Below are positions 14,855 through 60,113 of a stretch of DNA of 64,000 nucleotides, one piece after another. The notes under the pieces were generated by a model. The model saw only the letters and a list, made by a program, of their open reading frames with translations. It was not told the origin of the DNA and ran no database searches. The position numbers and the translations under genes were made by a program. Source of the stretch: Mobula hypostoma (lineage: Eukaryota); assembly GCF_963921235.1 (NCBI RefSeq), contig NC_086097.1, forward strand, positions 68,450,001 to 68,514,000, in the 5' to 3' direction. Numbering within the stretch: position 1 is the stretch's first letter; each line of letters opens with the position of its first letter.

Positions 14855-16213
14855 ACACTGAAGAGTGCAGTCGCTGGTACCTGGAGCAACACACCACACA
14901 AAAAGCTGGAGGAACTTGGCAGGTCAGGCAGCATCTATGAAGGGAAAGGGATATTTATATTTCAGATATCGATGCTCAAAACTGAAAGGTAAAGGGAATA
15001 TTGCCAGGACAAAAAGGTAAAAGTGCCTGGGGAGAGGGAGTGGACCAGGTATTTAAGGAGAGAGTGTAAAGTTCCCTGTGGAAAGTGGAAAGGGGAGGAG
15101 AGGAGAAGATGTGGCTGGTGCTGGGATTTTGCTGTAGCCGGCCGGAGGACTGAAAAATGATATGCTGGATGCAAAGACTGGTGGGGTGCTAGGTGAGGGC
15201 TAGAACTTTATTCCTGCTCTCTCAATGAGTGTGGGGTAAGTGCAGTAGTGTGAGAACTCTACCCACCCTCTCCATCTGTTCATTACCCACATTCTCTGAG
15301 CAATGGTTCCACTCCCACAGTCTTCCCTTTGCCCTCCGCACCTCACTCTCCTTATTCTGAACACCACCTTATCAGATTGCATCACCTTCAGCCCCTTGTC
15401 AGTTCCACCTATCATCTCAAACACGAGGAAATCTGCAGATGCTGGAATTTCAAGCAACACACATCAAAGTTGCTGGTGAATGCAGCAGGCCAAGCAGCAT
15501 CTCTAGGAAGAGGTACAGTCGACGTCTCGGGCCAAGACCCTTTGTCAGGACTAACTAAAAGAAGAGCTAGTAAGAGATTTGAAAGTGGGAGGGGGAGATC
15601 CGAGATGATAGGAGAAGACAGGAGGGGGAGGGATGGAGCCAAGAGCTGGACAGGTGATTGGCAAAAGGGATATGAGAGGATCATGGGACAGGAGGCCGAG
15701 GGAGAAAGAAAAGGGAGAGGGGGGAACCCAGAGGGTGGGCAAGGGGTATAGTCAGAGGGACAGAGGGAGAAAAAGGAGAGTGAGAGAAAGAATGTGTGTA
15801 TATAAATAAATAACGGATGGGGTACGAGAGGGAAGTGGGGCATAGTTAGTCCTGACAAAGGGTCTTGGCCCGAAATGTCGAATGTACCTCTTCCTAGAAA
15901 TGCTGCCTGGCCTGCTGCGTTCACCAGCAACTTCTATCTGTGTTGCCACCTATCATCTACCAGCTTCTGATGCAACTTCCACTCTCCCTTCCACCGTCTA
16001 CTTATCGCCCCTCTCCTCCCCCATCCCACCTCACCAGGAAATACTTATCATCTGTCAGCTCTTGCTTCACCCCTTCCTTCCACCATTTCAAACTGGCTAT
16101 CTGCCTTCTGTCTTACAGCCCAGATGAAGGGTCTCCACCCAAAACATTAATTGTCCATTTTCCTCCATAGATGTTGCCTGACTCACTGTGTTCCTCCAGT
16201 TTCTTTGTGTGTT
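14855..16213. mobile_element. Old Penelope-like element with inverted terminal repeats
   Basis: gctggaggaact..gcaggtcaggcagcatct at ~14905-14940 and its reverse complement at ~16165-16205; EHHLIRL remnant; degenerate hammerhead at ~16116-16155. Confidence 0.65.
15418..15945 (-). mobile_element. Young Penelope-like insertion with 5' inverted repeat
   Basis: 13-bp TSD ccacctatcatct (15405-15417, 15946-15958); ~100-bp inverted arms sharing the variant ctgacaaagggtcttggccc. Confidence 0.9.
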
Positions 16214-16763
16214 CACAGGAGGGTTAGAGTTTGGAATTAGGTAAGAATTATCACAATTATTTATGGTATTGGTCAGACCACTCCTGAAGTACTGTCCATA
16301 ATTCTGGTCTCACTACTTAAGATAAAAAAAAAGCACTGGAGGCAGCTCTAAGCTTAACTCAGGATGAGGGAGTAGTTCTATTCCAAACAGTTAAAAACCT
16401 CTCCTCAAAGGTGGCGGTGAACCTCTGATTCTGTATCTCACATTGTTGTGGAAGCTAGATCACTGGATTTATTCTGAGAGGTGGTAAATAGGCTTTCAAA
16501 GATCAAAGGACTATGAAGAATAGGTATAGAAGAAGAGATGAGGCTTGGGGCAGATCAGCCAAACTCATGTTAAATGCTTGAGAAGGCTTGAGGAGTTGAG
16601 CCTTCTCGTCATGCTTCTATTAATATATGCCCACAAATTCCCTGAGATAGTAGGACAGGGACATGTTGTGATTAAGAAAACATACAGATTATTTGCTTTC
16701 ATCAGGCAAGGCATAGATAATCATAGGCTAGGGAATCCAAGTTTCATTGGGGGTCTTGCATTT

Positions 16764-18983: not shown

Positions 18984-19167
18984 TAGAAACAAGAGAAAAT
19001 CTGCAGATGCTGGAGATCTGCATGAGGGTCGATTAATATGAGATTTAGCTGGAGATGCTGGAAATCCAAGCAACACACACAAAATGCTGGAGGAACTCAG
19101 CAGGCCAAGCAGTACCTATGGAAAAGATCACAGTCGATGTTTTGGGTTGAGACCCTTCAGCAGGACT
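18984..19167 (-). mobile_element. Solo Penelope-like terminal repeat
   Basis: Standard repeat body; TSD-like actcatgcagc (18973-18983) / actcgtgcagc (19165-19175); degenerate hammerhead at ~19131-19167. Confidence 0.8.
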
Positions 19168-19242: not shown

Positions 19243-20256
19243 TAGAAACATAGAAACATAGAAAATAGGTGCAGAAGTAGGCCATTCGGCCCTTCGAGCC
19301 TGCACCGCCATTCAGTATGATCATGGCTGATCATCCAACTCAGAACCCTGCCCCAGCCTTCCCTCCATACCCCCTGATCCCTGTAGCCACAAGGGCCTTA
19401 TCTAACTCCCTCTTAAATATAGCCAATGAACTGGCCTCAACTGTTTCCTGTGGCAGAGAATTCCACAGATTCACCACTCTCTGCGTGAAGAAGTTTTTCC
19501 TAATCTCAGTCCTAAAAGGCTTCCCCTTTATCCTCAAACTGTGACCCCTCGTTCTGGACTTCCCCAACATCGGGAACAATCTTCCTGCATCTAGCCTGTC
19601 CAATCCCTTTAGGATTTTATACGTTTCAATCAGATCCCCCCTCAATCTTCTAAATTCCAACGAGTACAAGCCCAGTTCATCCAGTCTTTCTTCATATGAA
19701 AGTCCTGCCATCCCAGGAATCAATCTGGTGAACCTTCTTTGTACTCCCTCTATGGCAAGGATGTCTTTCCTCAGATTAGGGGACCAAAACTGCACACAAT
19801 ACTCCAGGTGTGGTCTCACCAAGGCCTTGTACAACTGCAGTAGTACCTCCCTGCTCCTGTACTCGAATCCTCTCGCTATAAATGCCAGCATGCCATTCGC
19901 CTTTTTCACCGCCTGCTGTACCTGCATGCCCACTTTCAATGACTGGTGTATAATGACACCCAGGTCTCGTTGCACCTCCCCTTTTCCTAATCGGCCACCA
20001 TTCAGATAATAATCTGTTTTCCTATTTTTGCCACCAAAGTGGATAACTTCACATTTATCCACATTAAATTGCATCTGCCATGAATTTGCCCACTCACCCA
20101 ACCTATCCAAGTCACCCTGCATCCTCTTAGCATCTTCCTCACAGCTAACACTGCCGCCCAGCTTTGTGTCATCCGCAAACTTGGAGATGCTGCATTTAAT
20201 TCCCTCATCCAAGTCATTAATATATATTGTAAACAACTGGGGTCCCAACACTGAGC
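19243..20256 (-). mobile_element. Very young 5'-truncated CR1 LINE with uninterrupted RT C-terminal ORF
   Basis: ORF 19340-20263 (307 aa, no stops): GSVLGP.LF.IYINDLD, KFADDTKL, RPHLEYCVQFWSP; 6-bp TSD cattca (19237-19242, 20257-20262); (ATAGAAAC)n tail. Confidence 0.95.
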
Positions 20257-21947
20257 CATTCAAGGTACTTCAACTGATTGTAGTAAAAATACACCTGTAT
20301 CTGGAAGGTCCAACTGCTGGTGAGTCAGTATCCTGGCAAAAAGTACACCATGAAGAGAAAAGAACACTCCAAGCAACTCTGTGAAAAGGTTAATGTAAAG
20401 CACATGTCAGGAGATGGAGACAAGAAAATTTCCAAGTCACTGATTATCACTAGGAGTACAGTTAAGTCAATCATCAAGAAATGGAAAGAATATGGCACAG
20501 CTGTAAGTTTGCCTAGAGCAGGCCGTCTTCAAAAATTGAGTGACCATGCAAGAAGGGGTCTAGTGAGGGAGGCCATCAAGAGACCTATAACAGCTTCAGT
20601 GGCTGAGGTGGGAGAGACTGCACATAAAACAACTGTTGCCCAGGTGCTTCACCAGTAGTAGCTTTATAGGAAAGTGGTGAAGACAAAGCCACTGATGAAA
20701 AAAACTCACATGAAATCTCAGTTAGAATTTGCCAGAAGGCATGTGGGAGACTCTGAAGTCAACTGGAAGATGGTTCTAGGGATTGATGAAACCAAGATTG
20801 AGCTTTCTGGCCATCCAACTAAATACTACCAGACATCATCAAAAACACAGCATCCCTACCGTGAAGCATGATGGTGGCTGCATCATGCTGTGGGGATGCT
20901 TCACTGCAGCAGACCCTGGAAGGCTTGTGAAGGTAGAGGATAAAATGAATGCAGCAAAATACAGGGAAATCCTAGAGGAAAACCTGATTCAGTCTGCAAG
21001 AGAACTGCAACTTGGGAGAAGGTTTATTTTCCAGCAAGACAATGACCCCAAGCATAAAGCTAAAGCTACACAGGAATGGCTTAAATCAACAAAGTTGATG
21101 TCCTAGAGTGCCCAAGTCGAGGACCAAACCTCAATCCAATTGAGAATTTGCAGTTGAACTTGAAAAGGGTTGTTAATTCACAATCCCCATGCAATCTGAC
21201 AGAGCTTGAGCAGTTTTATAAAGCAGAATGGGGAAAAATTGCAGTGCCCAGATGTGGAAAGCTGATAGAGAGCTATCCACACAGACTCAAGGCTGTAATT
21301 GCTGCCACAGGTGCATCTACTAAATACTGATTTGCAGGAGGGGAGTAATTATGCAATTATTTTGTGTTTAATAATTGTTATAAATTTAGACCAATTTGTA
21401 GAATTTGTTTTCACTTTGACACTACAGCGTCTTTTCTGTTGATTAGTGTCAAAAAAGTCAAATTAAATCTTCTGTGATTCAATATTATAAATTAATAGAA
21501 CATGAAAACTTCCAAGGGGAGTGATCATTTTTTATAGGCACTGTATACAGACAGCCACTGCATTCAATAGGAGTTCTGGTCCATAAAAACTGTCCATAGA
21601 CAGATTTTTCTGTTAAGTTAGAAACAAACACTTTAAATGAGGGTCGATTAATATGAGAATTTATTTATTGTCTTCTTCTATGGTGTTACAATGATACTGA
21701 ATCAAAAAGTCCCACATTCGGTGGTTGGTTTCATTATTTTTAAAGTATCAAATGTTGGTACATATTTGGAAAAGTATTTTACAAATGTCAACGGAAGACT
21801 ATTTATATATTATCGATAATATTTATTTAAGTTCACATTTATCCCATGCTTGCTATCTACAAATACTCTACATTACTATGTATGACTAATGTTGTGTATT
21901 TAATATTTCAGTACCATTTGAGTAACATTGTAAATATATTGTTTGAA

Positions 21948-22350: not shown

Positions 22351-22951
22351 TAAGCATTCGTTATTTGTTTAAACAATTCATTACGGATTATATGTAATAG
22401 TATGTGAATGGCATAAGTCATCACACCACTACAGCATACATATGTGCCTCACTGAAGTAGAAAAATGGAACTAATCTACATGAGTTATCCCAGCTCCATC
22501 TATTTCTTTTAATTAGTTTAATGTTTTGGAGTTACAAAACATAAGAATGGCAATGAGGAAGCTTTAAACTGCACTGCTCCCTGTTACTATTGGGAATGAG
22601 GAAGTGGATGTGCTGAGAACCTACAGGTACCTGGGGATGCACCTGGATGACAATCTTGAGTGGAACACCAACACAGAGGCTGTGTACAAGAAGGGCCACT
22701 GTCACCTCTGCCTCCTGAGGAAACTGAGATCCTTTGGGGTACATAGGTCTCTCCTTCACATGTTCTACCAGTCTGTTGTCTCCAGTACAATCTTCTATGC
22801 GGTGGTGTGCTGGGGCAATGGCATCAACACGGGTGATGCCAACAGACTCGATAACTGATTAGAAAGGCTGGCTCTGTTATAGGACTTAAACTGGACACTC
22901 TGGAGGCTATGGATTTGAAGGAAAATCCTGGAAATTCTGGACAATATTTCT

Positions 22952-23401
22952 AATTATGAACATTGACTTCTCTAACTTCCACTAATGTCCCACCTCCCCC
23001 TCGTACCCCATCTGTTATTTATATACACACATTCTTTCTCTCACTCTCCCTTTTCTCCCTCTGCCCTCTGACTATACACCTTGCCCTTCCTCTGGGTTTT
23101 CCCCCCCTCCCCCTTTTCCTTCTCCCTGGGCCTTCTGTCCCATGATCCTCTCATATCCCTTTTGCCAATCACCTGTCCAGCTCTTGGCTCCATCCCTCCC
23201 CCTCCTGTCTTCTCCTATCATTTTGGATCTCCCCCTCCCCCTCCCACTTTCAAATCTCTTACTCACTCTTCCTTCAGTTAGTCCTGACGAAGAGTCTCGG
23301 CCTGAAACGTCGACCGTACCTCTTCCTAGAGATGCTGCGTTCACCAGCAACTTGATGTGTGTTGCTTGAATTTCCAGCATCTGCAGAGTTCCTTGTGTTT
23401 G
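22952..23401 (+). mobile_element. Penelope-like 3' fragment
   Basis: Starts with MNIDFSNF (end of the GIY-YIG ORF); 9-bp TSD aatatttct (22943-22951, 23402-23410). Confidence 0.9.
23279..23316 (+). ncRNA. Minimal type I hammerhead ribozyme motif (core intact, stem mismatches)
   Basis: TAGTC-CTGACGA-AGAGTCTCGGCCT-GAAA-CGTC^GACCG. Confidence 0.7.
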
Positions 23402-25261
23402 AATATTTCTCACCCTCTGCGTGCCACCTTGGCTGAACAGAGAAGCACTTTTCGTAATAAACTAAGACAACTGAGCTGCTCCAAAGAGCATTATATTGGG
23501 TCATTCTTACCCTCGGCCAGTAGGCCCTATAATAAGTCAACCTATAGCCAAGGAAGTTATGATTCCCTCCTGTTAGACTGTTTGAGGTAACTTTTTTTTA
23601 TTCTTTCTTACTCCTCTTCTAATATTTGTATATTTGTATATTTGGATATCTGTGCACTTGTAGTGTGACTGTGACACTGTAATTTCCTTTGAGAATAATA
23701 AAGTATTGTCTATCTATCAATCTAAATGAACCCGCGATGTCTAACTACCAGTTGTAATGACATGTTCGAGTTTTTTTAAAAAAAACAGTGCGGCATGTGC
23801 TTCTCCACAAGGGAACAGAGGTGTGGTGTTTGTGGTGTTTAAAAAATAACAAAAAACTGACTAAATTCACAAGTTCATGAACAGTGAGTACAGGTGATAA
23901 TAATCATAAAGTTTTAAAAAAGCAGAAATGGCTGGCTGCATCAGAAAGACAGACAAGTTCAGTGGCTCAAGAGATAACTAGAGTATATATACTGAGTGAA
24001 TTGAGTAGTATTTTGAAGCAAATGGAATAGCCAATGATAAACAAGTACCAGTTTTGCTGAGTGCATTGAGTGGAACAGCATACAGTTTGCTTAGAAGCTT
24101 GACTGCTCCAACCAAACCAGCTGAAATGAACTTTGTTGATATTGTGGAAGTAATGCAGGAACAGTTGGAACCAAAACCATTGTTGATTGCAGAACAGTGG
24201 TTTCATAAGCAGTATCAAAAACAGAGGGAGTCCATTTCAGTGTACAAGCCTAAATTGAAGAGATTGTTTAATTTGGAGAACATTATATGTAAGCATTCAT
24301 AAACTATTCCTAACTGAAGCATAATTTGCATTTAAAAGAGCAATTGAAATTGCTGTATCAGTGGAAACAGCAGACAGGTATGCAGTTGAGTTGCAGTCAG
24401 GAATGAAAGTGAGTGTGAACATAATTGCAACACTTGAACAGAAACCGGCCTGGCGAAAAAATTGTGTTACCATTATGGTAGGAGCTCACATACACCAGAC
24501 CAATGCAAATTTAAAGGTGAAACTTGCAAAAAATGCCACAAAGTAGAACACATACATAGAGCACGTCAGGCAAACAAAAGTAACTGGACTACACAAGGAA
24601 GAGAAAAAAAAGTAAAGATACAGTTTCAAAAAGAGAACTCATCAGCATGCTGTTTAAGAAAAAACCTGATAATGATGAGAGTCACACAGGACTGAGTAGT
24701 CTTGAGATTTATAATGTGAAAACTAATAATAGACAAGCAGTTGGAAGTGAACGGCAAATTCAGTTAAATGGAATGGGACACTGGCTTGGCTGATTCAGTC
24801 ATTTCACAAAATGAGTTTGAACATCATTTCAAAGATATTGAACTGAAGTCTGCAGATGTCTAAGAACATACAGTATACTGGACGAAAAGATAATTCCTGT
24901 GGGAATGATATTTGTAACAGTGAAATACAACAACCAACAAGCCACACCGGACTTGTTTGTATGTGGTAAAAGCAGGAGGGCCAGCATTGTGAGGACATGA
25001 GTGGCTGAGACAACTAAAACTTGATTGGAGATCCATTCAAAATTTGCCACATCCCCTGTAATAGAATAAATTAAACGTGAATTAAGGAAGGTATTGGTTG
25101 ATGCCACAGCAGTGTTGAAGGATGGTATTGGAAAACTCAAACATAGGGTAATGTTAAATGAAAATGGTACACCCAAGCTTTATAAAGCTCATCCTTATAC
25201 CATCCATGATAAAGTAACCAGTGAGATACATCCCATGGAGGCTGAAGGAATTCTTTCCAAG

Positions 25262-25408
25262 CAACACAACATCAGTCCTGATGAAGAGTTTCCGCCCAAA
25301 ACATTGCCTGTTTACTCTTTTCTATAGACACTGCCTGGCCTGCTGAGTCCCTCCACCATCTTGTGTGTGTTGCTTAGATTTCCAGCATCTGCAGATTTTC
25401 TCATATTT
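25262..25408 (+). mobile_element. Solo Penelope-like terminal repeat inside Gypsy pol
   Basis: 14-bp TSD gaattctttccaag (25248-25261) / gaactctttccaag (25409-25422); degenerate hammerhead cagtc-ctgatga..aaaa-catt. Confidence 0.85.
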
Positions 25409-28112
25409 GAACTCTTTCCAAGGTTGAATGGAGCCAATGGGCAGCATCAGTGGTCCCTGTAGCCAAGAAGAATGGGTCTGTCAGGATCTGTGGTGATTTT
25501 AAGGTCACCATCAATCTAGTACTGAGACCAACACCATCTGTCCAGGATAGAAGATATTTTTACAAACCTTTGTGTAAGAAAACATTTCAGCAAAGTGGAT
25601 TTAGCTGAGGCATACCTACAGGTGGAGATGAAAGAAGAGTCCAAAGTTTTTCTCACCATCAACACTCTCAAAGGGCTTTATCACTATAACAGGCTTATTT
25701 CTGGATAAGCATCTGCACCCGCACTCTGGCAGAAAGCTATGGACCAGGTTTTGCAAGGCTGTCCAGGCACTCAGTGTTACCTGGATGACATCATTGTTAC
25801 CAGTAAGGATGACAAGGCACATCTCCAAGATCTCGAGATAGCGTTAAAAAGATTAGAAGATTATGAGCTCAGAGCCTGATACAACATGGAAATTCTAGCA
25901 GTGGTGCAGGCCAAAGAACATGTCACGATTACAGTCATTTTTAGGATTTGTCAGTTATTATAACAAGTTCTTACTACATCTGGCTACAGTGCTCCACTCC
26001 TTGAACTCATTACTACAGATCTGGAAGAAATGGCAGTGGACAAAGCAGTGTGAGGTGCCTTTCAAAAAAGTAAAGGAAATGGTAATGTCAGGCATTATAC
26101 TCATACATTTTGATTCACATTGTTCAGTGAAGCTTGTTTGTGACACCTTATGGTGTAAGTGCAGTAATGTCATATACAGTATTATGAGTTTGTAAAGTGA
26201 ATGCCTCATAGATTTTGAATTGTGTTTCTTATCACTGCAGAGAAAAAATATGCTCAGTTTGACAAAGAGACCCTGAGTCTGATTTGGGGTGTAAAACGTT
26301 TCAATCAGTACTCGTATGGGAGAGGATTACCCTCATTAATGATCATCAACCGCTGGTGTCCATTTTCAATCCACATAAGGGTGTTTCACTAACAGCAGCA
26401 CGAATGCAGGGATGGACTCTGTTTCTTGGAGGACACAACTATAAGATCAAATTCAAGAGGACAACCAATAATGGCAATGCTGATGGTTCGTCCCATTTAC
26501 CCTTGGAAAAGGAAATACCTGAAAAACTTACAAAAGAGGACACTCCTCTTGACATATTCTCCCTAATGCAAATCGAAAGTTTCCCTATTAAGGCAAAGAT
26601 GAGCTAAATGGAAACGAGAAAAGACCCTGCACTGTCTCAGGTCTACATGGCAACCCAAAATGGCGGGAATGTGCAGTAGAAGTACCAGCAACTCCATTTT
26701 TACCAGCACCAAAATGACCTTGCCCTTAACGGAGGTTGCTTTATGTGGGATTGAAACTTGCAGTACCATATAAACTGAGAGCTAAAGTGTTGGAAGAGCT
26801 GCATGCCAGTCAGATAGGCATGGTTAAAATGAAAGCATTAGCTCAAAGTTTTGTCTAGTGGCTTGGGACAGGTCAGCAAATCAAACAGGTTGCCATGCAC
26901 TGTTAGGGATGCCAACACATCCAGAAGCCGACAAGAGTAGCACCTTCGCATCCCTGGGAATGGCCTGCAGTGCCCTGGCAGGGGATTCATGTAGATTTTA
27001 CCGGACCGTTCATGGGCACAAATTTCTTGGTAGTTGTGGATGCAGCTACAAAGCGGCAAGACGTGTTCCCAATAGCCTCCAATACAGCCTCGCACACTGT
27101 TGATCTGTTAAGAAGCCTCTTCACAAGGACTGGTGTTCCAGAACATTTAGTCAGTGACAATGGACCACAGTTTGTTGAGGAACAGTTTCAGTCATTCCTG
27201 AAAATCAATGGAATAAGACATATTACATCTGCGCTGTAGCACCCAGCTACAAATAGTTTGACGGAATAAATGTCCAAAGTCTAAAGAACACAATGTCAGC
27301 AAAACATACTACACTAACACTGAATTAGATGCTGACCAATTTTCTCCTTGCATATTGCAATGCAGCACACTCCACAACCAACAACTCACCAGCTATGCTG
27401 TACCGGGGTCAGCCTTTGCATTCAGGCTTGGATCTCCTCAACCCCAATCTCAGAAGGAGTTTTGAGGACAAACATCTGAGACAAATTGAAGGCTCCTCGA
27501 ACAAGGAGGTTCGATATTTCACATCTGGATAAGCAGTTCTGGTGAGGGACGACAGAGATGATCAAAAGTGGCTACTTAAAGATTAACAACAGAACTAGAC
27601 CATTCTCCTACACAGTAGAAATTGCATCCAATATCATCTGGAGACAACACATCGATTAGTTGAGGAAAGCATTTACTATGCTGTGGATGACTATATTATA
27701 GTAGTTGTATTATATAGTATACTGTGTATATAGTTAAAAATGCATTCTATTTTGAGTCAGAGTTCATGGCTAAGCAGGGAGGAGTGTTGTGTATGTTATA
27801 TTTCAGTGATATTTGAGTAATATTGTAAATATATTGTTTTATTAAGTGTTCTTTGTTTGTTTAAATAATTAATTACAGGTTATATGTAATAGTACCTGAA
27901 TGGCATACATCATCATGCCACCAGGTCATATGTGCATGCCTCACTAAAGTAAAAACGGGCCTAACATACACAAGTTATCCCGGCTTTTTCTGTTGTTTTC
28001 TTTTAATTAGTTTTATGTTCTGGAGTTACAAAACATAACAATTAACAATATACATTTTTTGTCTCAACTGAAAGGATAAACCAGCATATACTGAATTCTG
28101 TGGAGCACACCA

Positions 28113-32247: not shown

Positions 32248-32445
32248 AACACAAACACAAGAACATTTGCAGATGTTGGATATCCAAAGCAACACACACA
32301 AAATGCAGCAGAAATTTAGCAGATCAGGCACCATCTATGGAAAAGAATAAACCATGAACATTTTGGGCCAAGACCGTATCTAAGTCCAACATTTTCCGTA
32401 GATGCCGCCTGGTCTGTTGAGTTCCTCCAGCCTTTTGTGTGTGAT
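32248..32445. mobile_element. Short fold-back Penelope-like repeat
   Basis: gcagatgttgga..gcaacacacacaaaatg..aggcaccatctatggaaaa followed by its inverted copy ttttccgtagatgccgcctg..tgtgtgtg. Confidence 0.75.
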
Positions 32446-32494
32446 GTAGGATAGTGGTATCAGTACAGAGCATGCTAATTAGCTGGGGCATTTT

Positions 32495-34497: not shown

Positions 34498-35606
34498 TAT
34501 TATCAGAAGGAAGTCAAGGCAGAGAGAGTGCAGAAGAGGTTTACCAAGACGCTGCCTGGATTAAAGCACATGTTCTTTAAGGAGAGCTTGGTCAAATGTG
34601 TGTTGCATTTTTCTGCAGCGGCAGAAGTTAAGGGAAGGCTTGAGAGAAGTTTGTAGCGTTATAGATACAGTAGATAGCTGGTAATTTTTCTTCGGACTCA
34701 AAATGCCTGATACCAGATAGCATGTATTTAAAATGAAAGGGCATATGGTCAAAGGGGATGTGAAGGGCAAATTTTTGTACACAGAGTACAGTGGGTGCAT
34801 GGAATGTGTTGGCAGGGCTGGTGGTAGAGGCAGCACAATAGCAGCGTTTCGAGAGGCTCTTAGATAGTTTAATTAAGCATCATTACCTTAATTAGTTCAG
34901 CACAGCACTGTGCGCCAAAGAAATTGTTCCTGTGCTGCACTTCTATGTTCTATAACTGTGGGGGTCAAACTTTTAAAGCAGTTATTTAAGTTTACTGACT
35001 GGAAATTCATTAGTTTTATTTCTGGAGGGCTCAGCATTGCTCGGTATACCCAGGTTGATGCAGGCCTATAAATTACAGTTGTAATCTCGGCGAACTTCAA
35101 CCAACAAGCGGAAGGTACTCACCCAACAATGGCATCTGAGCTTCAGCCTTCAAGCCAGCAGCATAGTTGTCAGAGAATACGGAAAGAAAAGGGCAACTCC
35201 ATACATTGAACTTCTGAACATTTTATTTCAGTGAACAGTTACTAGGATGGAGGTACTTTCCACTTGTGGAGAGGGCCAAAAGCGTCTCAGGGCTATCCTT
35301 AGGAAAGATTGGCAGGAAACCATGGAATGTAAACTAAAAGACACAACTCTAAAGAGGAACAAAATAAAAAGGCCTTGGGATACCCATGTGTAATTCACTG
35401 AAAGTGACAAGACAGGTTCAGAAACTGGTCAAAAAAGCATTAGAAATCCTGGATTTTATAAATAATGGCCCAGAGTCCAAGAGCAAGGACATTGAAATAA
35501 GCCTTTGTAAAATACTTACTTGTCACCACTGGAGTATTGTGTCTACTTCTGGCAGACACTTCATGAAAGATGAAAATAATTTACTGAAATTATCCCAAGG
35601 ATGAGT

Positions 35607-36198
35607 AAACACAAAATAATCTGCAGATAACAACAGGAATTCTGCAGATGCTGGAAATTCAAGCAACACACATCAAAGTTGCTGGTGAATGCAGCAGGCC
35701 AGGCAGCATCTCTAGGAAGAGGTGCAGTCGACGTTTCAGGCCGAGGGTTCAGACGAAGGGTCTCGGCCTGAAACGTCGACTGCACCTCTTCCTAGAGATG
35801 TTGCCTGGCCTGCTGCGTTCACCAGCAACTTTGATAATCCGCAGATGCTGGGGTCAAAGCAACACTCACAACACGCTGGAGGAACTTAGCAGGTTGGGCA
35901 GCATCCATGGAAACGATCAGTCGACGTTTCGGGCCAGAACCCTTCATCAGGACTGTAGGGGGAAGGGGCAGAGGCCCTATGAAGAAGGTGGGGGGAGGGT
36001 GGGAAGGAGAAGGCTGGTAGGTTCCAGGTGAAAAACCAGCATTCATGGAAAAGATCGGTCGACGTTTTGGGCTGGAACCCTTCTTCCGGCCTGAAACGTC
36101 GACCGATCTTTTCCACGGATGCTGCCCGACCTGCTGAGTTCCTCCAGCGTGTTGTGAGTGTTGCTTTGACCCTAGCATCTGCAGATTATTTTGTGCTT
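35607..36198 (-). mobile_element. Fold-back Penelope-like element containing a second fold-back PLE (35629-35833)
   Basis: Outer inverted arms ~120 bp; inner insert with 13-bp TSD ataatctgcagat (35616-35628) / ataatccgcagat (35834-35846) and ~74-bp arms around a 16-nt spacer. Confidence 0.9.
35918..35955 (-). ncRNA. Minimal type I hammerhead ribozyme motif (intact)
   Basis: CAGTC-CTGATGA-A-GGGT(TCTG)GCCC-GAAA-CGTC^GACTG: perfect 5-bp helix I, 4-bp helix II, palindromic ACGT helix III. Confidence 0.85.
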
Positions 36199-36849
36199 AA
36201 TGGAGGAGAGCTAGTTGGGTCATTGCTCATAAAAGAAACTAAGCCCTTTCTGGTGTGCTCCTTGACACTTGTTTTTCTGGAACTTACAGTCTCCATCCCA
36301 GGAGGTAGACTTTCCACTGACATCTTAACCCACTGACTCTTACAACTAAGTTGACTATACCTTATTCACCCTCCCTACTGGTTTTCTTAATTTCTCTAAT
36401 TTCTGCTGCAGCTTTTCTCAAGATGAGGCTTTATACTTTTGGATTTCTGAAAAATCACCTTCTTTCAAAAACATGACTTTGACACTGCCATGGTTGATAT
36501 AGAACACTCATGCAAATCTCTGCCATTTCCTCTGTGTTGGTTAAACAAGCATGGACTTGGGGACTGCTTTATAGACCATCTGTATTCTATTTGCAATAGC
36601 CACCTTGAGCTTCAGTGGCATGTATTTTTAACTCTACCACCCACTCCCACATTATTCTATCCAAGGTCTTCTCCATTGCTACAGAGAAACCCACATCCAC
36701 TTGTTCTCCTCCCACACGTACTTACTCATTCACTTGGTTTTCTTCTTCTTCATCTCCAAATCCTCTGGTTCCATCAAGTCACTAACCCCTCCCCATCTAT
36801 CTCGTTACCCCTCCTGTTGCCATACACTGGAGATTTTTCCTCTTGCATC

Positions 36850-37410
36850 TCAGGTATAGTGCAGGTTCTTGACCCTAGATGTCAACTTACACCTTTTGCT
36901 GATTTGGAAAAGTCGGGTACGGGCCGGAACGTGGTAGCGGGATCCGGGCTCAGAGTGTATCAGTACAACGTGGCCCAGATGGATTGAAAAGGTGGTGTGC
37001 TGGGACTGGAGGTGAGGATCGGGCCAGTTCTGCTTGCTGCCCTGCAACATTTTGCACCGCTGTGTGATGAACTGAGGCTGAGGGCGTGGGTGTGTTCTGG
37101 CTGCTCAATAGACTCACGACCATTCTGAAAGCTGTCTGCTTTCTTTCATGGATTGTACAATTTGTTTCTCTCTCTCTCTCCCTCTCCCTCCCCCTTTCCC
37201 TCTCCCTTCTCCTCTCCCTCTCCCTTCTCCTCTCCCTCTCCCTCTCTCTCTCCTTCCCTCCCTCCCTCCCCCCACATTGGGTGTTTGTTGGATTTTTTTT
37301 AATGGACTTTTTTGGATTTCTTGTTTTGTGGCTACCTATAAAGAGATGAATCTTAAGGTTGTATAATGTATACGCACAGTACTTTGATAATAAATGTACA
37401 TTGAGCTTTG
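36850..37410 (+). mobile_element. Non-autonomous LINE-derived element with Rex-type tail and (CT)-rich microsatellite (37165-37272)
   Basis: Tail atgaatcttaaggttgtata..tactttgataataaatgtacattgagctttg matches the tails at ~30100 and ~39770. Confidence 0.55.
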
Positions 37411-38048
37411 CCTCCACACATAAAGCCTAACCCACTGTTTTTTTGTTCCAGATTTCAGCATCTGCAGGTTCATTTGTCTTCGCTCTTAGAAAGGCATGAA
37501 TAGCATGGCACAAGAATTTAAGAAGGCAAAGCATGTGTGGCAGAATGTTTCATAATGCAAAAAGTGATCAAAATTCAAAACATCCATTCGCATTGGCTTG
37601 GGAAAGCTGGATACTGTAACTCCTGTCAAGCAGTGTAATACAACAGGAAGAGAGATTATATATTAAAGACACCTAAGACTATTTTTTTTTAGATCTGTCA
37701 TGAGCCACACAGCAATCTCATAACTTTCCAAACTGAAGTCTTTCCCTCCTTTCTCTCTTCCAGCCATGGCATTGTACCTTTGTTCGTTTAAAAGTGCTGT
37801 ACCTCTCGGGAGAGTGTGCCTGCATTCCTGAGAGTTAAATCTACAGAGTCCATCAGATCATGAAATCGCTAGTTCATTTAGACAGTTCAAAAGTTCATTA
37901 CATAAAGGCAAATTACAGGAGGTAGACTGCAGTGATAGTAGTTCAGAAAATGTATATTTATAGGTTTTGTATGCTGCCATGTTTCACCAATGTTCTCAGG
38001 CAGGTGGTAAGCAATGGTCTCTTCTAAATCTATCTAAGGTATATCTAA

Positions 38049-38899: not shown

Positions 38900-39824
38900 A
38901 CCGAGGGATCTCTCACCCACCAGTCTGACTGTATGCTGCCACAACAACAACCTCTAGCTCAATGTCAGCATAACCAAAAAGCTGATTATTGACTGCAGGA
39001 GCAGGAAATCAGAGATCCATGAGATAGTCCTCATCAGGGGATCGGGGGTGAAGAGGGTCAGAAATTTTAAATTCTTCAGCATTATTATTTCAGAGGACCT
39101 GTCCTGGGTCCAGCACGTAAGTGATATTCCCAAAAAAGCACAGCAGCACCTCTACTTTCTTAGTAGTTTGCAAAAATTCGGCACATCATCTAAAACTCTA
39201 ACAAACTTGTAAGCTGCACAGTGGAGACTATACTGTCTGGTTGCATCAAAGCCTGGTATGGAAATACTAACTCCTTAAATAGAAAAGCCTACAAAATGTA
39301 GTGGATACAATCCAGTCCATTGCGGGTAAAGCCTCCCCTCTATTGAGCACACCTACAAGCAGTGCTGTTGTAAGAAAGCAGCAGCGATCACCAAGGACCC
39401 CACCATCCAGGCTAAGCTCTCTTATCACTGCTGCTATCAGGAAGGAGGTACAGGAGCCATAAGACTCACGCCCGCAGGTTCAGGAACAGTTATTACCCCT
39501 CATCCATCAGGCTCTTGAACGGAGGGGATTACTCCACTCAACATCATTCACTCCAACACTGAACTGCTCCCATAATCTATGGGCTCACTTGCACAGACTC
39601 TCTATTTCATGTGTTTGATATTTATTGCATTTTTACAATTATTATTTTGTTTGCTCTTTTGTATTTGCCTTTCACACTTTGGCTGTTTCGTCTGCCTTGT
39701 GTATGGTTTTTCATTGATTTTATTGTTTCTTTGTAGTTACTGTGAATTACTGCAATAAAATGAATCTCAGGGTAGTAAATGGTAACATATATGTACTTTG
39801 ATAATAAATATACTTTGAACTTTG
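38900..39824 (+). mobile_element. Rex1/Babar 3' fragment
   Basis: CHNNNL.LNVS.TKKLIID, FKFFSIIISEDLSW, FRNSYYPSSIRLLN; actttgaactttga tail. Confidence 0.88.
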
Positions 39825-40880: not shown

Positions 40881-42153
40881 AAATTCATATTTTTAAAAAT
40901 TGATTTATTGATATATAGTATACTATATAATACAACTACTATATAGATATCCACAGCATAGTACATTTTAAATTGTCCCTTTCAGGTCTAAAAATTTAAT
41001 TGCTGTGGAGGATTTCTTACCGTTGTGTGATAGCCTCTTTCCTGACGAGGGAGATCACTCTGCTTGGCAGGTGAGACTTGTGGCTGTGAAACAATCACAG
41101 GTTTTGGGGCTCCTCCATGGTGGTTGTAGGAGTTAACTCGGACACTGCAGGAATGGTTCTGACAGCTCTTGGATGTGTTGGCATCCCAAACAGTGCATGG
41201 CAATCTTCACTGGATGATGTGGATCACAATGTATGAATACAGTGTCTGCTGTCACCATTTCCTTCACCTTTTTGGAAAGCCACATCACATTGCTTTCTCC
41301 ATTGCTATCTCTTCCTGATTTGTAGTAATGAGTTCAAGGGGTGGAGCACAGTACCCAGCTTTGGCAGGAACCTGTTATACTAATTGACAAATCCTAAAAA
41401 GGACCGCAACTGTGACATGTTATTTGGCTTTGCAGCATCCACCGCTGCAAGAGTTTCTTCAGCATACTTGTGTAAAGCTTGTGCTTCAATACTGTGACCA
41501 AAGTAAATGATGCTTGGTTTAAAGAATTCACACTTGTTGCATCATAGTTTGAGCCTATAATCATATAATCTTTTTAACACTGTCTTGTTATTTTGGTGAT
41601 GTTCCTTGTCATCCTTATCAGTAACAATGACATCGCCCAGGTAGCACCGAGTGCCTGGACAGCCTTGTAGCACCAGGTCCATCACTTTCTGCCAGAGTGC
41701 AGGTGCAGATGTTACTCCAAAGATAAGCCTATTATAGCAACAAAGCCCTTTGTGAGTATTTATGGTGAGAAACACTTTGGACTATTCTTCCAACCACATC
41801 TGTAGTAGGCCTCAGCAAAGTCCACTTTACTGAAGTGTTTTCTGCCCAAGAGATTTGTAATTTATCCCCTACTCTGGGTAGACGGTACTGATCCACTTTC
41901 AGTACTGAGTTGATGGTGACCTTAAAATTATCACAGATCTTGTCATCCTTGAACACTGCTATGGCATCATCCAGTACCTTTCTTAATTCAATTTCAGTTG
42001 ACTCCATTGCAGGGGATGTAACATACAAATGGTGGATGGATCTCCCATCAAATTGTAGTTGTCTCAGCCACCCATGACCCACAATGCCAGCCCTCTTGTT
42101 TTTAACCACATACCAGCTCAACATGGCTTATTGATTGTTGTATTTCACTGTGA

Positions 42154-42225
42154 AATTTGCCCAGGCCTGCGCCCTGGAAACTTTCCAAGGCACAAATCCA
42201 TGATCTCATGAGACTAACGGACGCC
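42154..42225 (+). mobile_element. 72-bp 3' fragment of the same SINE/RTE tail
   Basis: 13-bp TSD tatttcactgtga (42141-42153, 42226-42238). Confidence 0.85.
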
Positions 42226-43784
42226 TATTTCACTGTGACGAATGTCATTCCAACAGGAGTTACTCTTTCCAGTATTAGTTCTTAATTGGATATCTGCAGG
42301 CTTCAGTTTGGTATCTCATAATGCTATTCAAACTTATTTTGCGGAATGGCGGAATCACCTGACCCATGTCCAATTCCATTTTAATTAAATCTCTGTTCAC
42401 TTCCAGTGTAAGCTATACTGCTTGATCATTGTTAGTTTTCACATTGTAAATCTAAAGGCTACCCTGTCCTACGTCATTTTCATTATAATCAGATTTTTCA
42501 TCAACAGCATGGAGATTAGTATTCTTTTTGAAACTGCAGCTTGACATTTTATCTTTTTTCTCTTCCCTGGGCAAACCATTTATTTTTGTCTGCCCAACAT
42601 GGTCTTTGTATATGTCCTACTTTGTGGCATTTTCTGCAAGTTTCATCTTTAAACCTGCATTGGTCTGGTGTATGTGAGTCTCTGCCACAACGGTAACACA
42701 ATTTGTATGGCCAACTTGGTTTCAAAACATTGCAATTCTGCTCACTTTCAGTCCTGACTGCAAATCAATTGCATCTCTTTCTGTTGTTTCCATTGATATA
42801 GCTATTTCAACTGCTCTTTTAACTGTAAGTTGTGCTTCAGTTAGGAGTCACTTTTGAATGCCTTCTTGTAAAATTCTACAAACTAAACGATACTCAAAGC
42901 ATCATTATGTCCATCACAAAACTCACAATGCTCAGACAACCTCTTCAATTCAGCCACACACACTGAAATGGACGCCCTTTCTTTTTTCTTCTGATTATGG
43001 AACTAAAAGTGTATTGCAATCACCAATGTTTTTGGTTCTAAATGTTTCTACATACTTTCATGATGTCACCAAAGCTCATGTTAGCTGGTTTGGTTGGAGC
43101 AGTCAAACTTCCAAGCAAACTTTATGCCTTTAAACCCAAACCACTTAGCAAAACTAGCATTCCCTTCTCATTGCCAATTTCACTTGCATCAAAATACTGC
43201 TCAATTTGTTCAGTATAAATGAGCCAGTTATCGCTTGTGCAATCAAACGTGTCTATCTTTCTGATTAGCCAGCCATTTCTGCTATTTTTATTTATGATTA
43301 TTATCACCCAGTACTCACTGTTTATGAACCCATGAATTCATCCATTTCCTGCCTTTTTTCTACTCAACAGTCTTCTTTCTCTCTCTTCCAAAGAGACACA
43401 TACTGTGCTGCTTCCTTATTAATTTGAACATCTCACTGCACTTTTTTTTAAAACTTGAACGTCTTGCTGCACTTAAACAGGCAGATATTCATCTTGGGTT
43501 CATTTAAAACTTCCTCGTCACCACTATTATGCCTTGTAACTCCAAAACATAAAAACTAATTAAAAGAAAAACATGGAGCCAAGAGATAACGTGTATGTTT
43601 AATTTTATTTTACTTATAGCAAAACGCATGCATGTATAACACCGTGGCTTGATGACGTATGCCATACACGTACATCGTACATATAACCAATATAAATTAT
43701 TTAAACAAACAAAGAATGCTTAATCAAACAATATATTTACAATACTACTCAAATACTATTGAAATATTAAATATATAACAGAAA

Positions 43785-50870: not shown

Positions 50871-52005
50871 CAGTGCCTTGAAACAGTATTCAGCCACCAC
50901 AACTATTTTTCACATTTTACGCTCTCACTTTCTAAATTTGAAATATATTGTAGGATTTTTGAACTAATCTATAAAACATCATGAAGCATGTCAAATCAAA
51001 AGAAAAATTACAAAATCTGTCAACAATTTACTAAAAATTAAAAACAAACATTGTGAGGCTGAAAAAGTATTCATCCCCTTTGCAATTACTATGCTAACTT
51101 TCCTCAGGTGCAATACTCAATATTACCTTAACAACTCACCCAATTTGTTGATGTAGAAAATTGGAGTATCACCTGAGTAAATACCCATTCTCTCTGTAAG
51201 GTCCAACAGCGTGGTAGATTTTCAATAGACCAAATCAAAATGAAGACAAAAGAGAATTCAAGGAAAGTAAGGGATATGATGATAGAGAATCATAAATCAG
51301 GGGAACAGTATAAGACCACTTCAAAGGCATAACAACATAACTTAGATCTCAGAGCAGTCCGTCGTAAAATAGTGGAAAAAATATGAAACTACAGCTGTGC
51401 TGCCTAGTTCAGGCCGACCCTCTAAGCTTTTGACATAGAAGAATGCCACATGTAAGAGAGGCTACTGTAATGCCAACAGTCACTTTAAGTGATCTGCTGA
51501 AGTCAATGGCTACAATTGGAGTTGAAGTTCATGGCTCCACAATCTCTGAGGTCCTGCATAAAAAAGTTATTTATGGAAGAGTGGCAAGGAAGAAGCCCTG
51601 GCTAAGAAAAAGTATATCCTCTGGCAATACCTTAAGATTGCTGCCCACCACTGCTCCCCAACTAACCTGGCCCACTTTGAGCAATTTTTCTAAGGGAATG
51701 GACAAATTCTGCTCCATCGCATTGTGCAAAGTTAATAGAGGCAGATTCAAAAAGACTACTGGCTGTAATAGCTGTGAGAGATGGTTCAACAAAGTACTGA
51801 GCAAAGGGAGATGAATACTTTTGAAATGCTGACATGCCAGTTTTTGAATTTTGTGCTTTTCGTGTTTTACAATTTTCATTGTTTTGGGGCTCTACTGTGA
51901 AAAAGAAGTATGTGATTCACAAATAAAAATTCTTATTTAAATTGATCAAACTCTCTGGTTGTAATGCTCAAAGGGTTGGGGGCTGAATACTTTTACAAGG
52001 CACTG
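50871..52005 (+). mobile_element. Tc1 (IR/DR-type) internally deleted transposon
   Basis: TA|cagtgccttg...caaggcactg|TA; long imperfect TIRs; MKTKE.S, STISEVLHK..YGRVARKKPWL; DDE domain deleted. Confidence 0.92.
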
Positions 52006-52502
52006 TATAAGGAGAAGAGTAGGGGACCAAAACAGCTTCCTTGAGCAACACCAAAAAATACATTGTATCTCTGAGAAAATTGGTCTCCAAAATGGACAAA
52101 ATATTTTCTCTCCAAGGTGGATGAGCAAAAACAATTAAGAGCACTAACAGAGAGGCCAACACAATTGTCAGGAATATCTAGGAGAGTGTTGTGGTCAATT
52201 GTGTTGAAGGCAGCATTTAGATCTAGAAAAATTAGAATCGAGAATCTGTTGGCATCAGGGTTGAGCCTAAGATTGCTGACAATTTTGTTAAGGACTGTCT
52301 CTGTTCTGTTAGACAGCTGCAATTTTGAAGGCATCTGAAAAAACTCCAGTTTCAAGGGATGGTTAATAATTTTCCTAACAGAACTGAGAACACTTAAAAG
52401 AATCCTTAAAAAGTGTGGTAGCAATCGGGTTGAGACAGCAAATAAATGGTTTACTCTTCATTACAATTTTATAGCGTTCTGAATCAGAAATACTTGTAAA
52501 GT

Positions 52503-56574: not shown

Positions 56575-58980
56575 TTAAGACCATAAGATATAGGAGCAGA
56601 AGTAGGCCATTTGGCCCACCGAGTCTGCTTTGCCATTCAGTCATGGGCTATGCCAATTCTTCCAGTCATCCCCACTCGCCTGCCTTCTCCCATACCTTTT
56701 GATGCCCTGGCTAATCAAGAACCCATCCATCTCTGCCTTAAATACACCCAATGACTTGGCCTCCACAGCTGCTTGTGGCAACGAATTCCACAGATTAACC
56801 ACCATCTGACTAAAGTAATTTCTCAACATCTCTGTTCTAAATGGACATCCTTCAATCCTGAAGACATGTCCTCTTGTCCTGGACTCCCCTACCACGGGGA
56901 ATCACTTTGCAACATCTAATCTGTTCAGGCCATTTAACATTTGGAATGTTTCTAATGAGATCCCCTTCATTCTCCTGAACTCCAAGGAATACAGCCCAAG
57001 AGCTGCCAGATGTTTCTCATACGGTAACCCTTTCATTCCTCGAATCATTCTCGTGAATCTTCTCTGAACCCTCTCCAATGTCAGTATATCCTTTCTAAAA
57101 TAAGGAGCCCAAAACTGCACACAATACTCCAAGTGTGGTCTCATGAGTGCTTTATACAGCCTCAATGTCACATCCCTGCTCTAATATTTTATACCTCTAG
57201 AAATGAATGCCAACATTGCATTCACCTTCTGCACCACCAACTCAACCTGGAAGTTAACCTTCAGGGTATCCTGCACAAGGATTCCCAAGTCCCTTTGCAT
57301 CTCTGCATTTGGAATTCTCTCCACATCTAAATAATAGTCTTCCCATTTATTTCTTCCACCAAAGTGCACGATCATACACTTTCCAATATTGTATTTCATT
57401 TGCCACTTCTTTGCCCATTCCCCTAAACTATCTAGGTCTCTCTGCAGGCTCTCTGTTTCCACAACACTACCTGCTCCTCCACCTATCTTTGTATTATCGG
57501 CAAATTTAGCCACAAATCCATTAATCCCACAGTCTAAATTATTGGCATACATCGTAAAAAGCAGTGGTCCCAACACTAAACCCTCTAGAACTCCACTGGT
57601 AACCAGCAGCCAGCCAGAATAGGATCCCTTTATTCCTACTCTCTGTTTTCTACCAATCAGCCAGTGCTCCACCCATGCTAGTAACTTCCCTGTAATTCCA
57701 TGGGCTTTTATCTTGCTAAGCAGCCTCATGTGCGGCACCTTGTCAAAGGTCTTCTGAAAATCCAAGTACACCACATCTACTGCATCTCCTTTGTCTACCC
57801 TACCTGTAATTTCCTCAAAAAAATTGCAGTAGGTTTGTCAGGTTGGATTTTCCTTTCAGAACACCATGCTGGCTTTGGCCTATCTTGTCATGTTCTTCCA
57901 AGTATTCTGTAATCTCATCCCTAACAATCGATTCCAACAACCTCCCAACTACTGATGTCGAGCTAACAGGTCTACAGTTTCCTTTCTGCTACCTCCCACC
58001 CTTCTTAAATAGTGGAGTAACATTTACAATTTTCCAGTTATCCAGTACAATGCCAGAATCTATCGATTCTTGAAAGATCATTGTTAATGCTTCCACAATC
58101 TCTCCAGCTACTTCCTTCAGAACTCGAGAGTGCATTCCATCAGGTCCAGAAGATTTATCCACCCTCAGACCATAAAGCTTCCTGCGCACCTTCTCAGTCC
58201 TAATTTTCACTGCACATATTTCACTTCCCTGGCACTCTTGAATGTCCGGTATACTGCAGATGTCTTTCACTGTCAAGACTGATACAAAATACTCATTCAG
58301 TTTCAATGCTATCTCTGCATCTCTCATTACAATATCTCCAGCGTCATTTTCTATTGGTCCTATATCTACCCTCAACTCTCTTTTACTCTCTATATACTTA
58401 AAAAGGCTTTTAGTATCTTTGATACTAGTCACCAGCTTCCTTTAGTAATTCATCTTTTCTTTCCTAATGACCTTCTTAGTTTCCTTCTGCAAGTTTTTAA
58501 AAGCTTTCCAATCCTCTAGCTTCCCACCAGCTTTGACTTCCTTGTATGTCCTCTCTTTTGCTTTCACTTTGGCTCTAACTTCACTTGTCATCCACAGTAG
58601 TGTCCTTTCTCCATTCGAAAATTTCTTCTTATTTGGAATATATCTGTCTGGCATTTCTCTCATTTTTCACAGAAACTCCAGCCTTTGCTGCTCTGCTGTC
58701 CTTCCTACTAGGGTTTCCTTCCAGTCAATTTTGGCAGATTCCTCTCTCATGCCATTGTAGTTTCCTTTATTCCACTGAAATACTGACACATTGGAATTTA
58801 GTTAATCTTTCTCAAATTTCAAAGTGCACTCGATCATATTGTGATCATTGTTCCCTAAGAGTTGCTTCAGCTCTCTTATCACCTCTGGATAATTGCACAA
58901 CACCCAATCCAGCACAGCCGATCCCCTAGTGGGCTCAACAACAAGCTATTCTAAAAAGCCATCCCTTAGACATTCTACAA
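56575..58980 (-). mobile_element. CR1 LINE, 2.4-kb 5'-truncated copy
   Basis: ORFs 58946, 58442, 57989, 57181, 56902 and 56641 tile ORF2 (YLDFQKTFDKVPH, KFADNTKIGG, RPHLEYCVQFWAP); taagaccataaga tail. Confidence 0.93.
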
Positions 58981-59377
58981 TTTCTTTATTATTTCTTTTC
59001 AAAATCTTTTCATATTTATTTTTATGTATTCTACTCAAGAGGATACAGATAAGAAAGCAGGCAGGGGAATAGGCACTTTCAATAATCATCTTTAAGATTA
59101 AAAAAAAGTCCAGGTCACTGATGCATGTATACATTCACTTGAAAACATTAACAACAAATGTCTCTGCTCCTCCCAAAGTATACAGTATATTTTTTAAATT
59201 ACTCATAATATATGTATCATGGCAGCTTACTTATGCAAAGACGGCTTTCACAAAATGCAATATGATAATAATCATATAATCAAGTTTCAGCCAAGTTAAT
59301 TGAGAGATGAATATTGTCCAGGACAATGCAGATAAAGCCCCTGCTGTTTGAAATAACACACATTACCTCCCCTTTTG

Positions 59378-60113
59378 GAGGAACTCAGAAGGCCAGGCAA
59401 CATCTATGGAAAAAAGTACAGTCAACATTTCAGGCCAAGACCCTACAGCAGGGCTGGCGAAGAAAAGATGAGGAGTCAGAATTGGAAGGTGAGGGGAGGG
59501 GAAGAAGAAACTGGGAGGGGTGAAGTAAAGAGGTGGGAAGTTGATTAGTGAAGGAGATACAGGACTGGAGAAGGGGGAATCTGATAAGGGAGGATAAAAG
59601 ACCGTGGAAGAAAGAAAAGAGGGGAGGAGCACTACAGGGGAGGTGATGGGTAAGAAGCTAAGATGAGAGAGGAAAATGCAAATGGGGAATGGTGAAAGAG
59701 AGGGGGGAGGCATTATCAGAAGTTCAAGAAATCAATGTTCATACCATCAGTCTGAAGGCTACCCAGAAGGAATATAAAGTGTTGCTCTTCCAACCTGAGT
59801 GTGGCCTTATCATGACAGTAGGGGAGGCCATGGACTGACATGTCAGAATGGGAATGGGAAGTGGAATTAAAATGGGTAGCCACTGGGAGATCCCAATTTC
59901 TCTGGCAGACGGAGCATAGGTGCTCGGTGAAGCAGTCTCCCAACCTATGTTGTGTCTCACCAATATACAGGAGGCATCTATGGAAAAGAGCAAACAGTTG
60001 ACGTTTCGGCCTGAGTTTTGATGAAGGGTTTCGGCCTGAAACATCGACTGTTTACTCTTTTCCATAGAGGCTGCCTGGCCTGCTGAGTTCCTCCAGCATT
60101 CCGTGTGTGTTGC
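59378..60113 (-). mobile_element. Penelope-like element with GIY-YIG remnant and 5' inversion
   Basis: LLYIGETQHRLGDCFTEHL..PVATHFN..LEEQHFIF..GMNIDF (ORF 59716); inverted repeat 60018-60113. Confidence 0.9.

Follow-up and report, generated by a model that had tools for sequence, protein, structure and literature searches.

Minimal hammerhead motifs in the truncated ends of a probably Neptune-type Penelope-like element family of a ray

The recurring 38-nt motif in this 64-kb stretch of Mobula hypostoma DNA (the window, meaning the whole stretch that was analysed) is best explained, with a probability that we put at about 0.88, as a minimal type I hammerhead in the pseudo-LTR of an endonuclease-bearing, probably Neptune-type, Penelope-like element (PLE). 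The copies in the window are then 5'-truncated element ends that are likely no longer ribozymes. Motifs of this kind have been known since 2014, when minimal hammerheads were described in PLE pseudo-LTRs as thousands of dispersed vertebrate copies (PMC4209133). What the window adds is a cartilaginous-fish family at high density, with 11 insertions in 64 kb.

Read 5' to 3' on the minus strand, positions 35918-35955 consist of a helix I arm, CUGAUGA, a bulged A, a 4-bp helix II, GAAA, CGUC and the other helix I arm. C17 falls at 35923 and G1.1 at 35922, so that the cut predicted from the sequence lies between them, exactly where the original prediction had placed it. A second hammerhead at 61932-61969(-) also has five of five helix I pairs and four of four helix II pairs; the pair at 10.1-11.1 is G-C at 35918 and a G-U wobble at 61932. 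Both copies had been called intact, and the reading of the structure and a structural descriptor (core plus helices) agree on this: the descriptor passed 35918, 61932 and an unrelated, non-palindromic site at 53613, against a mean of 0.02 per window in 50 null sequences. The earlier assignment to the minimal type I hammerheads of PLEs, in which an ACGU palindrome replaces helix III, fits the core, the helices and the linkage to an open reading frame (ORF).

An ungapped window scan returned 13 matches to the 61932 copy with at most 12 mismatches of 38, compared with none in 20 Markov-1 null sequences. The dispersed family that had been proposed is thus confirmed, while some of its coordinates move, from 15848-15885 to 15847-15884, from ~60018 to 60013-60050 and from ~35750 to 35745-35782. 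Further copies or half copies lie at 36056-36093(-), 36084(+), 35725-35745(-), 59976-60011(-), ~32350(-) and 36851(+). The bare pattern CTGANGA-N8-30-GAAA is weakly enriched (13 occurrences vs. a mean of 5.9, with 2 of 100 shuffles reaching 13). Among 14 scored copies, two (35918 and 61932) are intact and two (23279 and 62610) keep the core with helix I/II or the palindrome broken, giving four with a complete CUGANGA, GAAA and NUH core; the other ten carry at least one core change, many at CpG sites. The copy at 23279-23316(+) does have the intact core first ascribed to it, though with imperfect helices (Table 1), and the one at 62610, listed as mutated, has lost its palindrome yet kept its core. 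An unpaired A between positions 9 and 10.1 is present in all 14 copies. The ACGT palindrome (15.2-16.2) is found in seven, with CpG-type changes in the other seven.

Table 1. PLE-derived features of the window. Offsets are counted from C17 (0) of the hammerhead; strand is left empty where none is assigned.
Position	Strand	Feature	Details
14884-16217		Old PLE remnant hosting the 15419 insertion	Tail 14885-14939(-); RT-EN linker coding remnant 14994-15299(-); 3' UTR; damaged hammerhead 16116-16153(+)
15419-15946	-	Young insertion, starts at ORF stop codon (-328 to +101)	Inverted arm 15844-15946(+) (-35 to +67); hammerheads 15516-15553(-) and 15847-15884(+), both G8A; exact 13-bp target duplication
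18984-19164	-	Solo hammerhead-plus-tail unit, start about -28 to -31	Core broken; tail end partly duplicated; 11-bp target duplication, 1 mismatch
22954-23401	+	Young insertion, -357 to +101, with last ~10 ORF codons	Hammerhead 23279-23316: core intact, helix I 4/5, helix II 3/4; 11-bp target duplication, 1 mismatch
25262-25408	+	Solo hammerhead-plus-tail unit, start -32	11-17 nt inverted tail scrap before the unit; G12A; 14-bp target duplication, 1 mismatch (read by eye, missed by script)
32253-32448		Old fold-back remnant	Arms about -21 to +101 (minus) and +10 to +63 (plus); half hammerhead only
35605-36195	-	Older PLE insertion	Inverted arm 36084-36187(+) from -16; ~113 nt of 3' UTR; intact hammerhead; tail; short tandem piece 36037-36092 (about -31 to +24), core broken; no target duplication found
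35629-35835		Young fold-back insertion nested in tail of the older 35605-36195 element	Arms -15 to +101 (minus) and -25 to +58 (plus); damaged hammerhead 35745-35782(+); 13-bp target duplication, 1 mismatch
35918-35955	-	Minimal type I hammerhead, intact, older subfamily	Core complete; helix I 5/5; helix II 4/4; ACGU palindrome
36265-37470	+	Very old, internally deleted PLE remnant	RT-region coding match 36265-36436 (E 7e-4, weak); degenerate hammerhead 36851-36888, 6 core changes; tail scrap 37453-37470
59374-60114	-	Older insertion	Hammerhead 59419-59456 (core broken); 3' UTR; GIY-YIG end 59719-59979; short tandem piece 59976-60011 (-12 to +22); inverted arm 60019-60114(+) (-26 to +68)
61836-62710	-	Best-preserved insertion	GIY-YIG ORF end 62265-62543; ~295-nt pyrimidine-rich 3' UTR; hammerhead 61932-61969; long tail to +101; inverted arm 62548-62710(+) (-100 to +68) with hammerhead 62610-62647, palindrome broken; exact 13-bp target duplication
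62265-62543	-	PLE GIY-YIG endonuclease, C-terminal ~92 codons	Open to stop; 87-89% identity to Hypanus sabinus and Mobula hypostoma RT-EN proteins, E 7e-43

On the best copy the element runs from the ORF stop (-328) through a pyrimidine-rich 3' UTR to the hammerhead (-32 to +5) and a tail. The hammerhead lies about 295-300 nt downstream of the GIY-YIG stop at 62265, and the same order is seen at 59419 and 23279. Placed on one reference, the 11 insertions have 5' ends that span -606 to +55 and two alternative 3' ends, at +96 to +101 for long arms and +65 to +68 for partner arms, which corresponds to an optional extension of ~34 nt. An inverted partner, as an arm or a scrap, accompanies seven of the 11, and in two a short tandem piece separates the arms. 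Hammerhead pairs are mostly on opposite strands and therefore cannot form cis dimers. Target duplications of 11-14 bp flank six of nine insertions examined (five by script, one by eye) and three are without one; only 3 of 500 random position pairs reach at least 11 bp. Two young copies are nested within older ones. The same architecture is published for PLE insertions, which are 5'-truncated, can include partial tandems, have an inverted copy next to them and end on one side in a tail of 30-40 bp (PMC8557442).

The tandem pieces at 59976-60011(-) and 36037-36092(-) end at +22 to +24, directly past a conserved AG-ATG of the tail, which in these two cases may mark a preferred template-jump point. 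After the hammerhead, the tail (61900-61969(-) and other copies) contains a pyrimidine run and YAG resembling a splice acceptor, and the core CTGAY resembles a branch point ~40 nt upstream. An eight-pair stem predicted in the tail shows almost no two-sided change across copies and is not established. We rejected an ORF that would begin at the ATG following the hammerhead, as its frame differs between the two subfamilies and the tail has no shared reading frame.

The link to coding sequence comes from the endonuclease fragment in the best-preserved insertion, whose relatives were 27 hits among 100 candidates. The Pfam GIY-YIG model gave an E of 0.06 for the fragment and 5e-4 to 2e-3 for four ray relatives, with scores below the curated cut-off. 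Of the CCHH motif, the fragment retains the second C and both H, together with the YIG motif, and the whole motif is present in the relatives at 87-89% identity. In ray relatives the order is reverse transcriptase (RT), a C-x4-CxxC linker and GIY-YIG with CCHH; RT lies upstream in the same ORF in P0003, P0006 and P0018, whereas the window holds only weak RT-region remnants. The linker is found in P0002-P0004 and P0006, and no window copy has it intact. A zinc-finger-like C-x2-5-CxxC linker between RT and endonuclease (EN) marks the Neptune and Nematis clades (PMC8557442). The family is thus probably Neptune-type, an assignment that rests on the linker motif in the relatives, which marks both clades, rather than on an RT tree.

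By tblastn, coding remnants are present in five of the 11 insertions: 14994-15299 (E 1e-8 to 8e-10), the last codons at 22956, 36265-36436, 59719-59979 (82% identity to P0003, E 4e-40) and 62268-62543. One further insertion starts at the ORF stop codon. Neither a full-length element nor an RT core of this PLE family was found in the 64-kb window. Several ray relatives of the endonuclease fragment bear the names of host genes joined to PLE coding sequence, perhaps through exonisation or as an annotation artefact. In the Atlas, GIY-YIG-labelled clusters scored 0.93-0.94 but contained the family in just 15-31% of members, so they serve only as a lead. The protein query found three weak loci in viral contigs; the single viral-contig locus returned by the tail motif was rejected as an unrelated chance match in phage-like DNA.

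For comparison between lineages we used 77 PLE-coding loci from metagenomes, in which one family dominates and about three are independent. A core-only pattern, asking for no helix, gave 53 matches in 44 of the 77 loci, and of these matches 43 had at least four of five helix I pairs, 42 had all four helix II pairs and 39 had ACGT. The full descriptor found a palindromic coding-strand match in 22 of the 77 loci and in none of 10 null sets. Between families the helix I arms are wholly different in sequence and still paired, and two-sided changes occur at all five helix I pairs in a 10-row alignment whose rows had been selected with a descriptor requiring helix I. L008 is the nearest relative to combine the linker with a hammerhead. 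As in the window, four other loci (L031, L036, L050 and L075) carry one hammerhead downstream of their ORF and a second, inverted hammerhead upstream, but with helix sequences unrelated to those of the window. Core conservation and stem covariation had been set as part of the test of the original prediction, and a compensated helix I with a kept core is what distant PLE relatives, in about three families, display.

Within the window, the majority letter differs between the two subfamilies at 5 of 38 hammerhead sites, compared with 21 of 40 upstream sites (p 0.0003), where the alignment is of low complexity, and 19 of 66 tail sites (p 0.09). Non-CpG changes in individual copies do not differ between core and tail (2/58 vs. 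23/430 in the young subfamily and 12/89 vs. 71/516 in the older), the numbers being small. In the older subfamily, five of the 12 core changes are G12A, at a CpG that the script left unclassed; excluding them gives 7/80 vs. 71/516 (p 0.28). The motif is therefore conserved as a hammerhead between lineages, and after insertion the core decays like its flanks.

The PLE family is very abundant. In four of four public runs, 8,802, 10,922, 80,232 and 61,335 contigs aligned on a 711-nt stretch, although contig depth is not copy number and related species are possibly included; two bins over a skipped repeat were without cover. None of 24 runs listed for the family is recorded as RNA, which does not bear on expression. 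Among the best-supported end points listed, contigs stop matching at 61968, one helix I edge (58, 72, 460 and 459 contigs), and at 61931, the other helix I edge (70, 379 and 376 contigs in three runs). The form with G10.1-C11.1 makes up 34, 24, 66 and 82% of depth in the four runs. Two intact motifs per 64 kb would correspond to ~30 per Mb if the window is typical, or roughly 4-110 by a Poisson estimate.

The original prediction regarded most copies as short non-coding units behaving like non-autonomous retroelements. Such a retrozyme- or SINE-like family, independent of the coding element and mobilised in trans by a PLE via circular or self-cleaved RNA, is an unlikely account of what we find. 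Six of the 11 insertions are without coding sequence, two solo units share both their start (-28 to -32) and the long-tail end, and animal retrozymes derived from PLE pseudo-LTRs are reported in one chondrichthyan (preprint, bioRxiv 10.64898/2026.07.22.740005). However, the 5' ends form a series on one reference rather than a fixed start, no arm begins at the cut site, and the GIY-YIG end and the hammerhead have similar contig depth in four of four runs (again depth, not copy number). The motif occurs in none of 12 Tandem Repeats Finder rows, and there are no head-to-tail tandem units that each hold a complete hammerhead, the only close same-strand pair having a broken upstream core. Because the units are not tandem and the truncation series is continuous with the coding copies, they do not qualify as retrozymes. 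Given also the five insertions with coding remnants and the one that begins at the stop codon, the units are better described as 5'-truncated ends of coding elements.

Whether these ends still cut is a separate matter. A very large pool of self-cleaving RNA had been proposed, and the abundance of the family agrees with that; a working pool, kept or co-opted by the host, nevertheless seems very improbable. The isolated 38-mers of both intact copies fold helices I and II with a probability of 0.87-0.98, but once at least 30 nt of native flank are included the values drop to 0.00 for helix I and at most 0.11 for helix II in both, by nearest-neighbour predictions that hold no tertiary or magnesium terms. 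For the 35918 copy, a long hairpin with the upstream inverted arm is predicted to sequester its GAAA-CGUC half. Dimer cleavage of minimal hammerheads through ACGU pairing is published (PMC4209133; PMC6765202), but in the same kind of model double-hammerhead dimers (-19.9 and -11.5 kcal/mol) are less stable than the dimer minimum (-30.3 kcal/mol). The damage to 12 of 14 copies, the decay of cores at the tail rate, the mostly inverted pairing and the lack of an intact same-strand tandem in the window also speak against such a pool, as do published minimal hammerheads, which cut weakly (PMC4209133), one of them requiring its protein (PMC11167929). The motif might also be merely hammerhead-like, a conserved protein-binding or promoter element that does not catalyse. 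This would agree with the result from Rfam (0 covariance-model hits at E<=1 across 4227 families), with the modest folding z-scores of the intact 38-mers (-1.8 and -1.2), and with the anole PLE, whose hammerhead mutants still insert in vitro and for which no RNA reads end at the cut site (PMC11167929). We likewise give it very little weight, since the full core and GUC triplet are kept across families that share no helix-arm sequence, and related motifs cleave in vitro (PMC4209133; PMC11167929).

The only close same-strand pair, 36056 with 35918, was rejected as a cis dimer: its upstream core is broken and its predicted cross-pair probability is 0.000. In the minimum-energy fold predicted for the 61932-61969(-) monomer, G5-A6-Y7-G8 pairs with the cut-site CGUC, which lengthens helix I and hides the core. 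Intact and near-intact window copies have C or U at position 7, permitting this pairing, and several distant relatives have A.

Under the preferred reading, that of truncated ends of a coding PLE, an active master element would be transcribed through tandem copies. By analogy with the PLE literature, the GIY-YIG endonuclease would nick the target, with staggered nicks giving the target duplication; reverse transcription would start at two internal tail sites and usually stop early, giving 5' truncation; and a second event on the opposite strand would produce the inverted arm. The inserted cDNAs were likely copied from RNA uncut at C17, because every long arm reads through the cut site, in line with in vitro findings on the anole element (PMC11167929). 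Selection on the ribozyme would probably act only in active master elements, where it may cut the tandem precursor RNA weakly, either as an ACGU dimer or with the element's protein.

The positions of the 5' ends hint at a further role. By a hand tally, 10 of 21 arms begin at -35 to -12 from C17, in the 5' half of the ribozyme, and none begins at +1. At the level of insertions, seven of 11 have a break in this interval (binomial p 2e-6 to 1e-3 under three simple models), with the interval chosen post hoc, paired arms not independent and one of the ten arms (32378) old and weakly aligned. Three of four strand-switch joints in public contigs, from the 15 of 184 joints listed, have one side in the hammerhead. 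We tentatively suggest that reverse transcription in this element ends preferentially in the 5' half of the hammerhead rather than at the cut site, a proposal that we consider possible but doubtful. The transcript might start at the 5' edge of the hammerhead, with priming in the upstream pseudo-LTR yielding the short units as run-off copies; alternatively, the hammerhead fold might make the RT stop and switch template. If so, the PLE hammerhead would act as a structure in the formation of pseudo-LTRs and inverted arms, and its conservation despite barely cutting would be accounted for; the ray family, with two intact motifs per 64 kb, would provide very extensive natural data on which to test this. 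More generally, young insertions bounded by target duplications record where reverse transcription starts and ends relative to the ribozyme, offering a genome-scale test of cleavage versus fold in mobilisation.

The window motif shares with metazoan PLE minimal hammerheads the type I topology, the 5-bp helix I, the unpaired base before 10.1, the palindromic 15.2-16.2, the lack of a helix III stem and the pseudo-LTR location, as well as thousands of single copies that are dispersed and linked to truncated PLEs, and opposite-strand pairs 100-700 bp apart (PMC4209133). It differs in having a helix II of 4 bp, compared with 7-8 bp in the Schistosoma families, and in the G10.1-U11.1 of the young subfamily, where PLE minimal hammerheads usually have G-C (PMC4209133). 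A Neptune hammerhead is listed in the 2014 supplement, and the files of it that were searched yielded no shark, skate or Callorhinchus entry (PMC4209133). Unlike the endonuclease-bearing Neptune and Nematis elements described earlier (PMC8557442), the family has no full-length copy in the window and its targets are not microsatellites. PAc, a Poseidon element of Anolis carolinensis, also has two 3' ends ~34 nt apart downstream of its hammerhead; its tail corresponds to two internal RT start sites, and its cDNAs read through the cut site, as expected from internal starts on uncleaved RNA (PMC11167929). PAc nevertheless belongs to a different clade, and its ORF starts within the hammerhead, whereas the ray tail has no shared frame. 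Animal non-LTR retrozymes are likewise short type I hammerhead repeats related to PLE pseudo-LTRs, but they form head-to-tail units of 150-450 bp with a hammerhead in each, and the ray copies are dispersed, inverted or single, and linked to coding sequence (PMC7229834; bioRxiv 10.64898/2026.07.22.740005). PLE expansion in shark introns is known (10.1101/443036), and we found no prior description of a cartilaginous-fish hammerhead PLE family in the literature searched, which was mostly that available without subscription, with repeat databases outside its scope.

No host exon was recognised by Pfam in 68 of 69 frames of at least 100 aa and 150 of 189 frames of 66-99 aa, where the matches were to transposon-type domains, two ALKBH8_N and one weak DUF3915. 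The ALKBH8_N matches lie at 22568-22855(+), with the PLE at 22954 inserted directly downstream, and at 38958-39209(+). This model often matches the C-terminal part of fish LINE RTs, so that both are presumably repeat-derived. RNase H-like and integrase core matches at 26263-27236(+) mark an LTR-retrotransposon-type remnant with an inverted older copy near 41268-43780; long inverted matches (77-83%) join 23940-26070 and 41268-43265, with an RT match at 41545-41781. RT fragments at 7702-8160(-), 9467-10183(+), 19343-20269(-), 51996-52457(-) and 57184-57837(-), within repeat families D2, D4 and D7, probably derive from CR1-type or related LINEs. Tc1/mariner-type transposase remnants (Sleeping Beauty HTH, DDE_3 and Tc3 HTH) occur at 20287-21103(+) and 51434-51811(+). 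Finally, 6464-6700 and 7899-8138 form an 80% inverted repeat of ~240 nt, its copies 1.2-1.4 kb apart, that overlaps an RT fragment.
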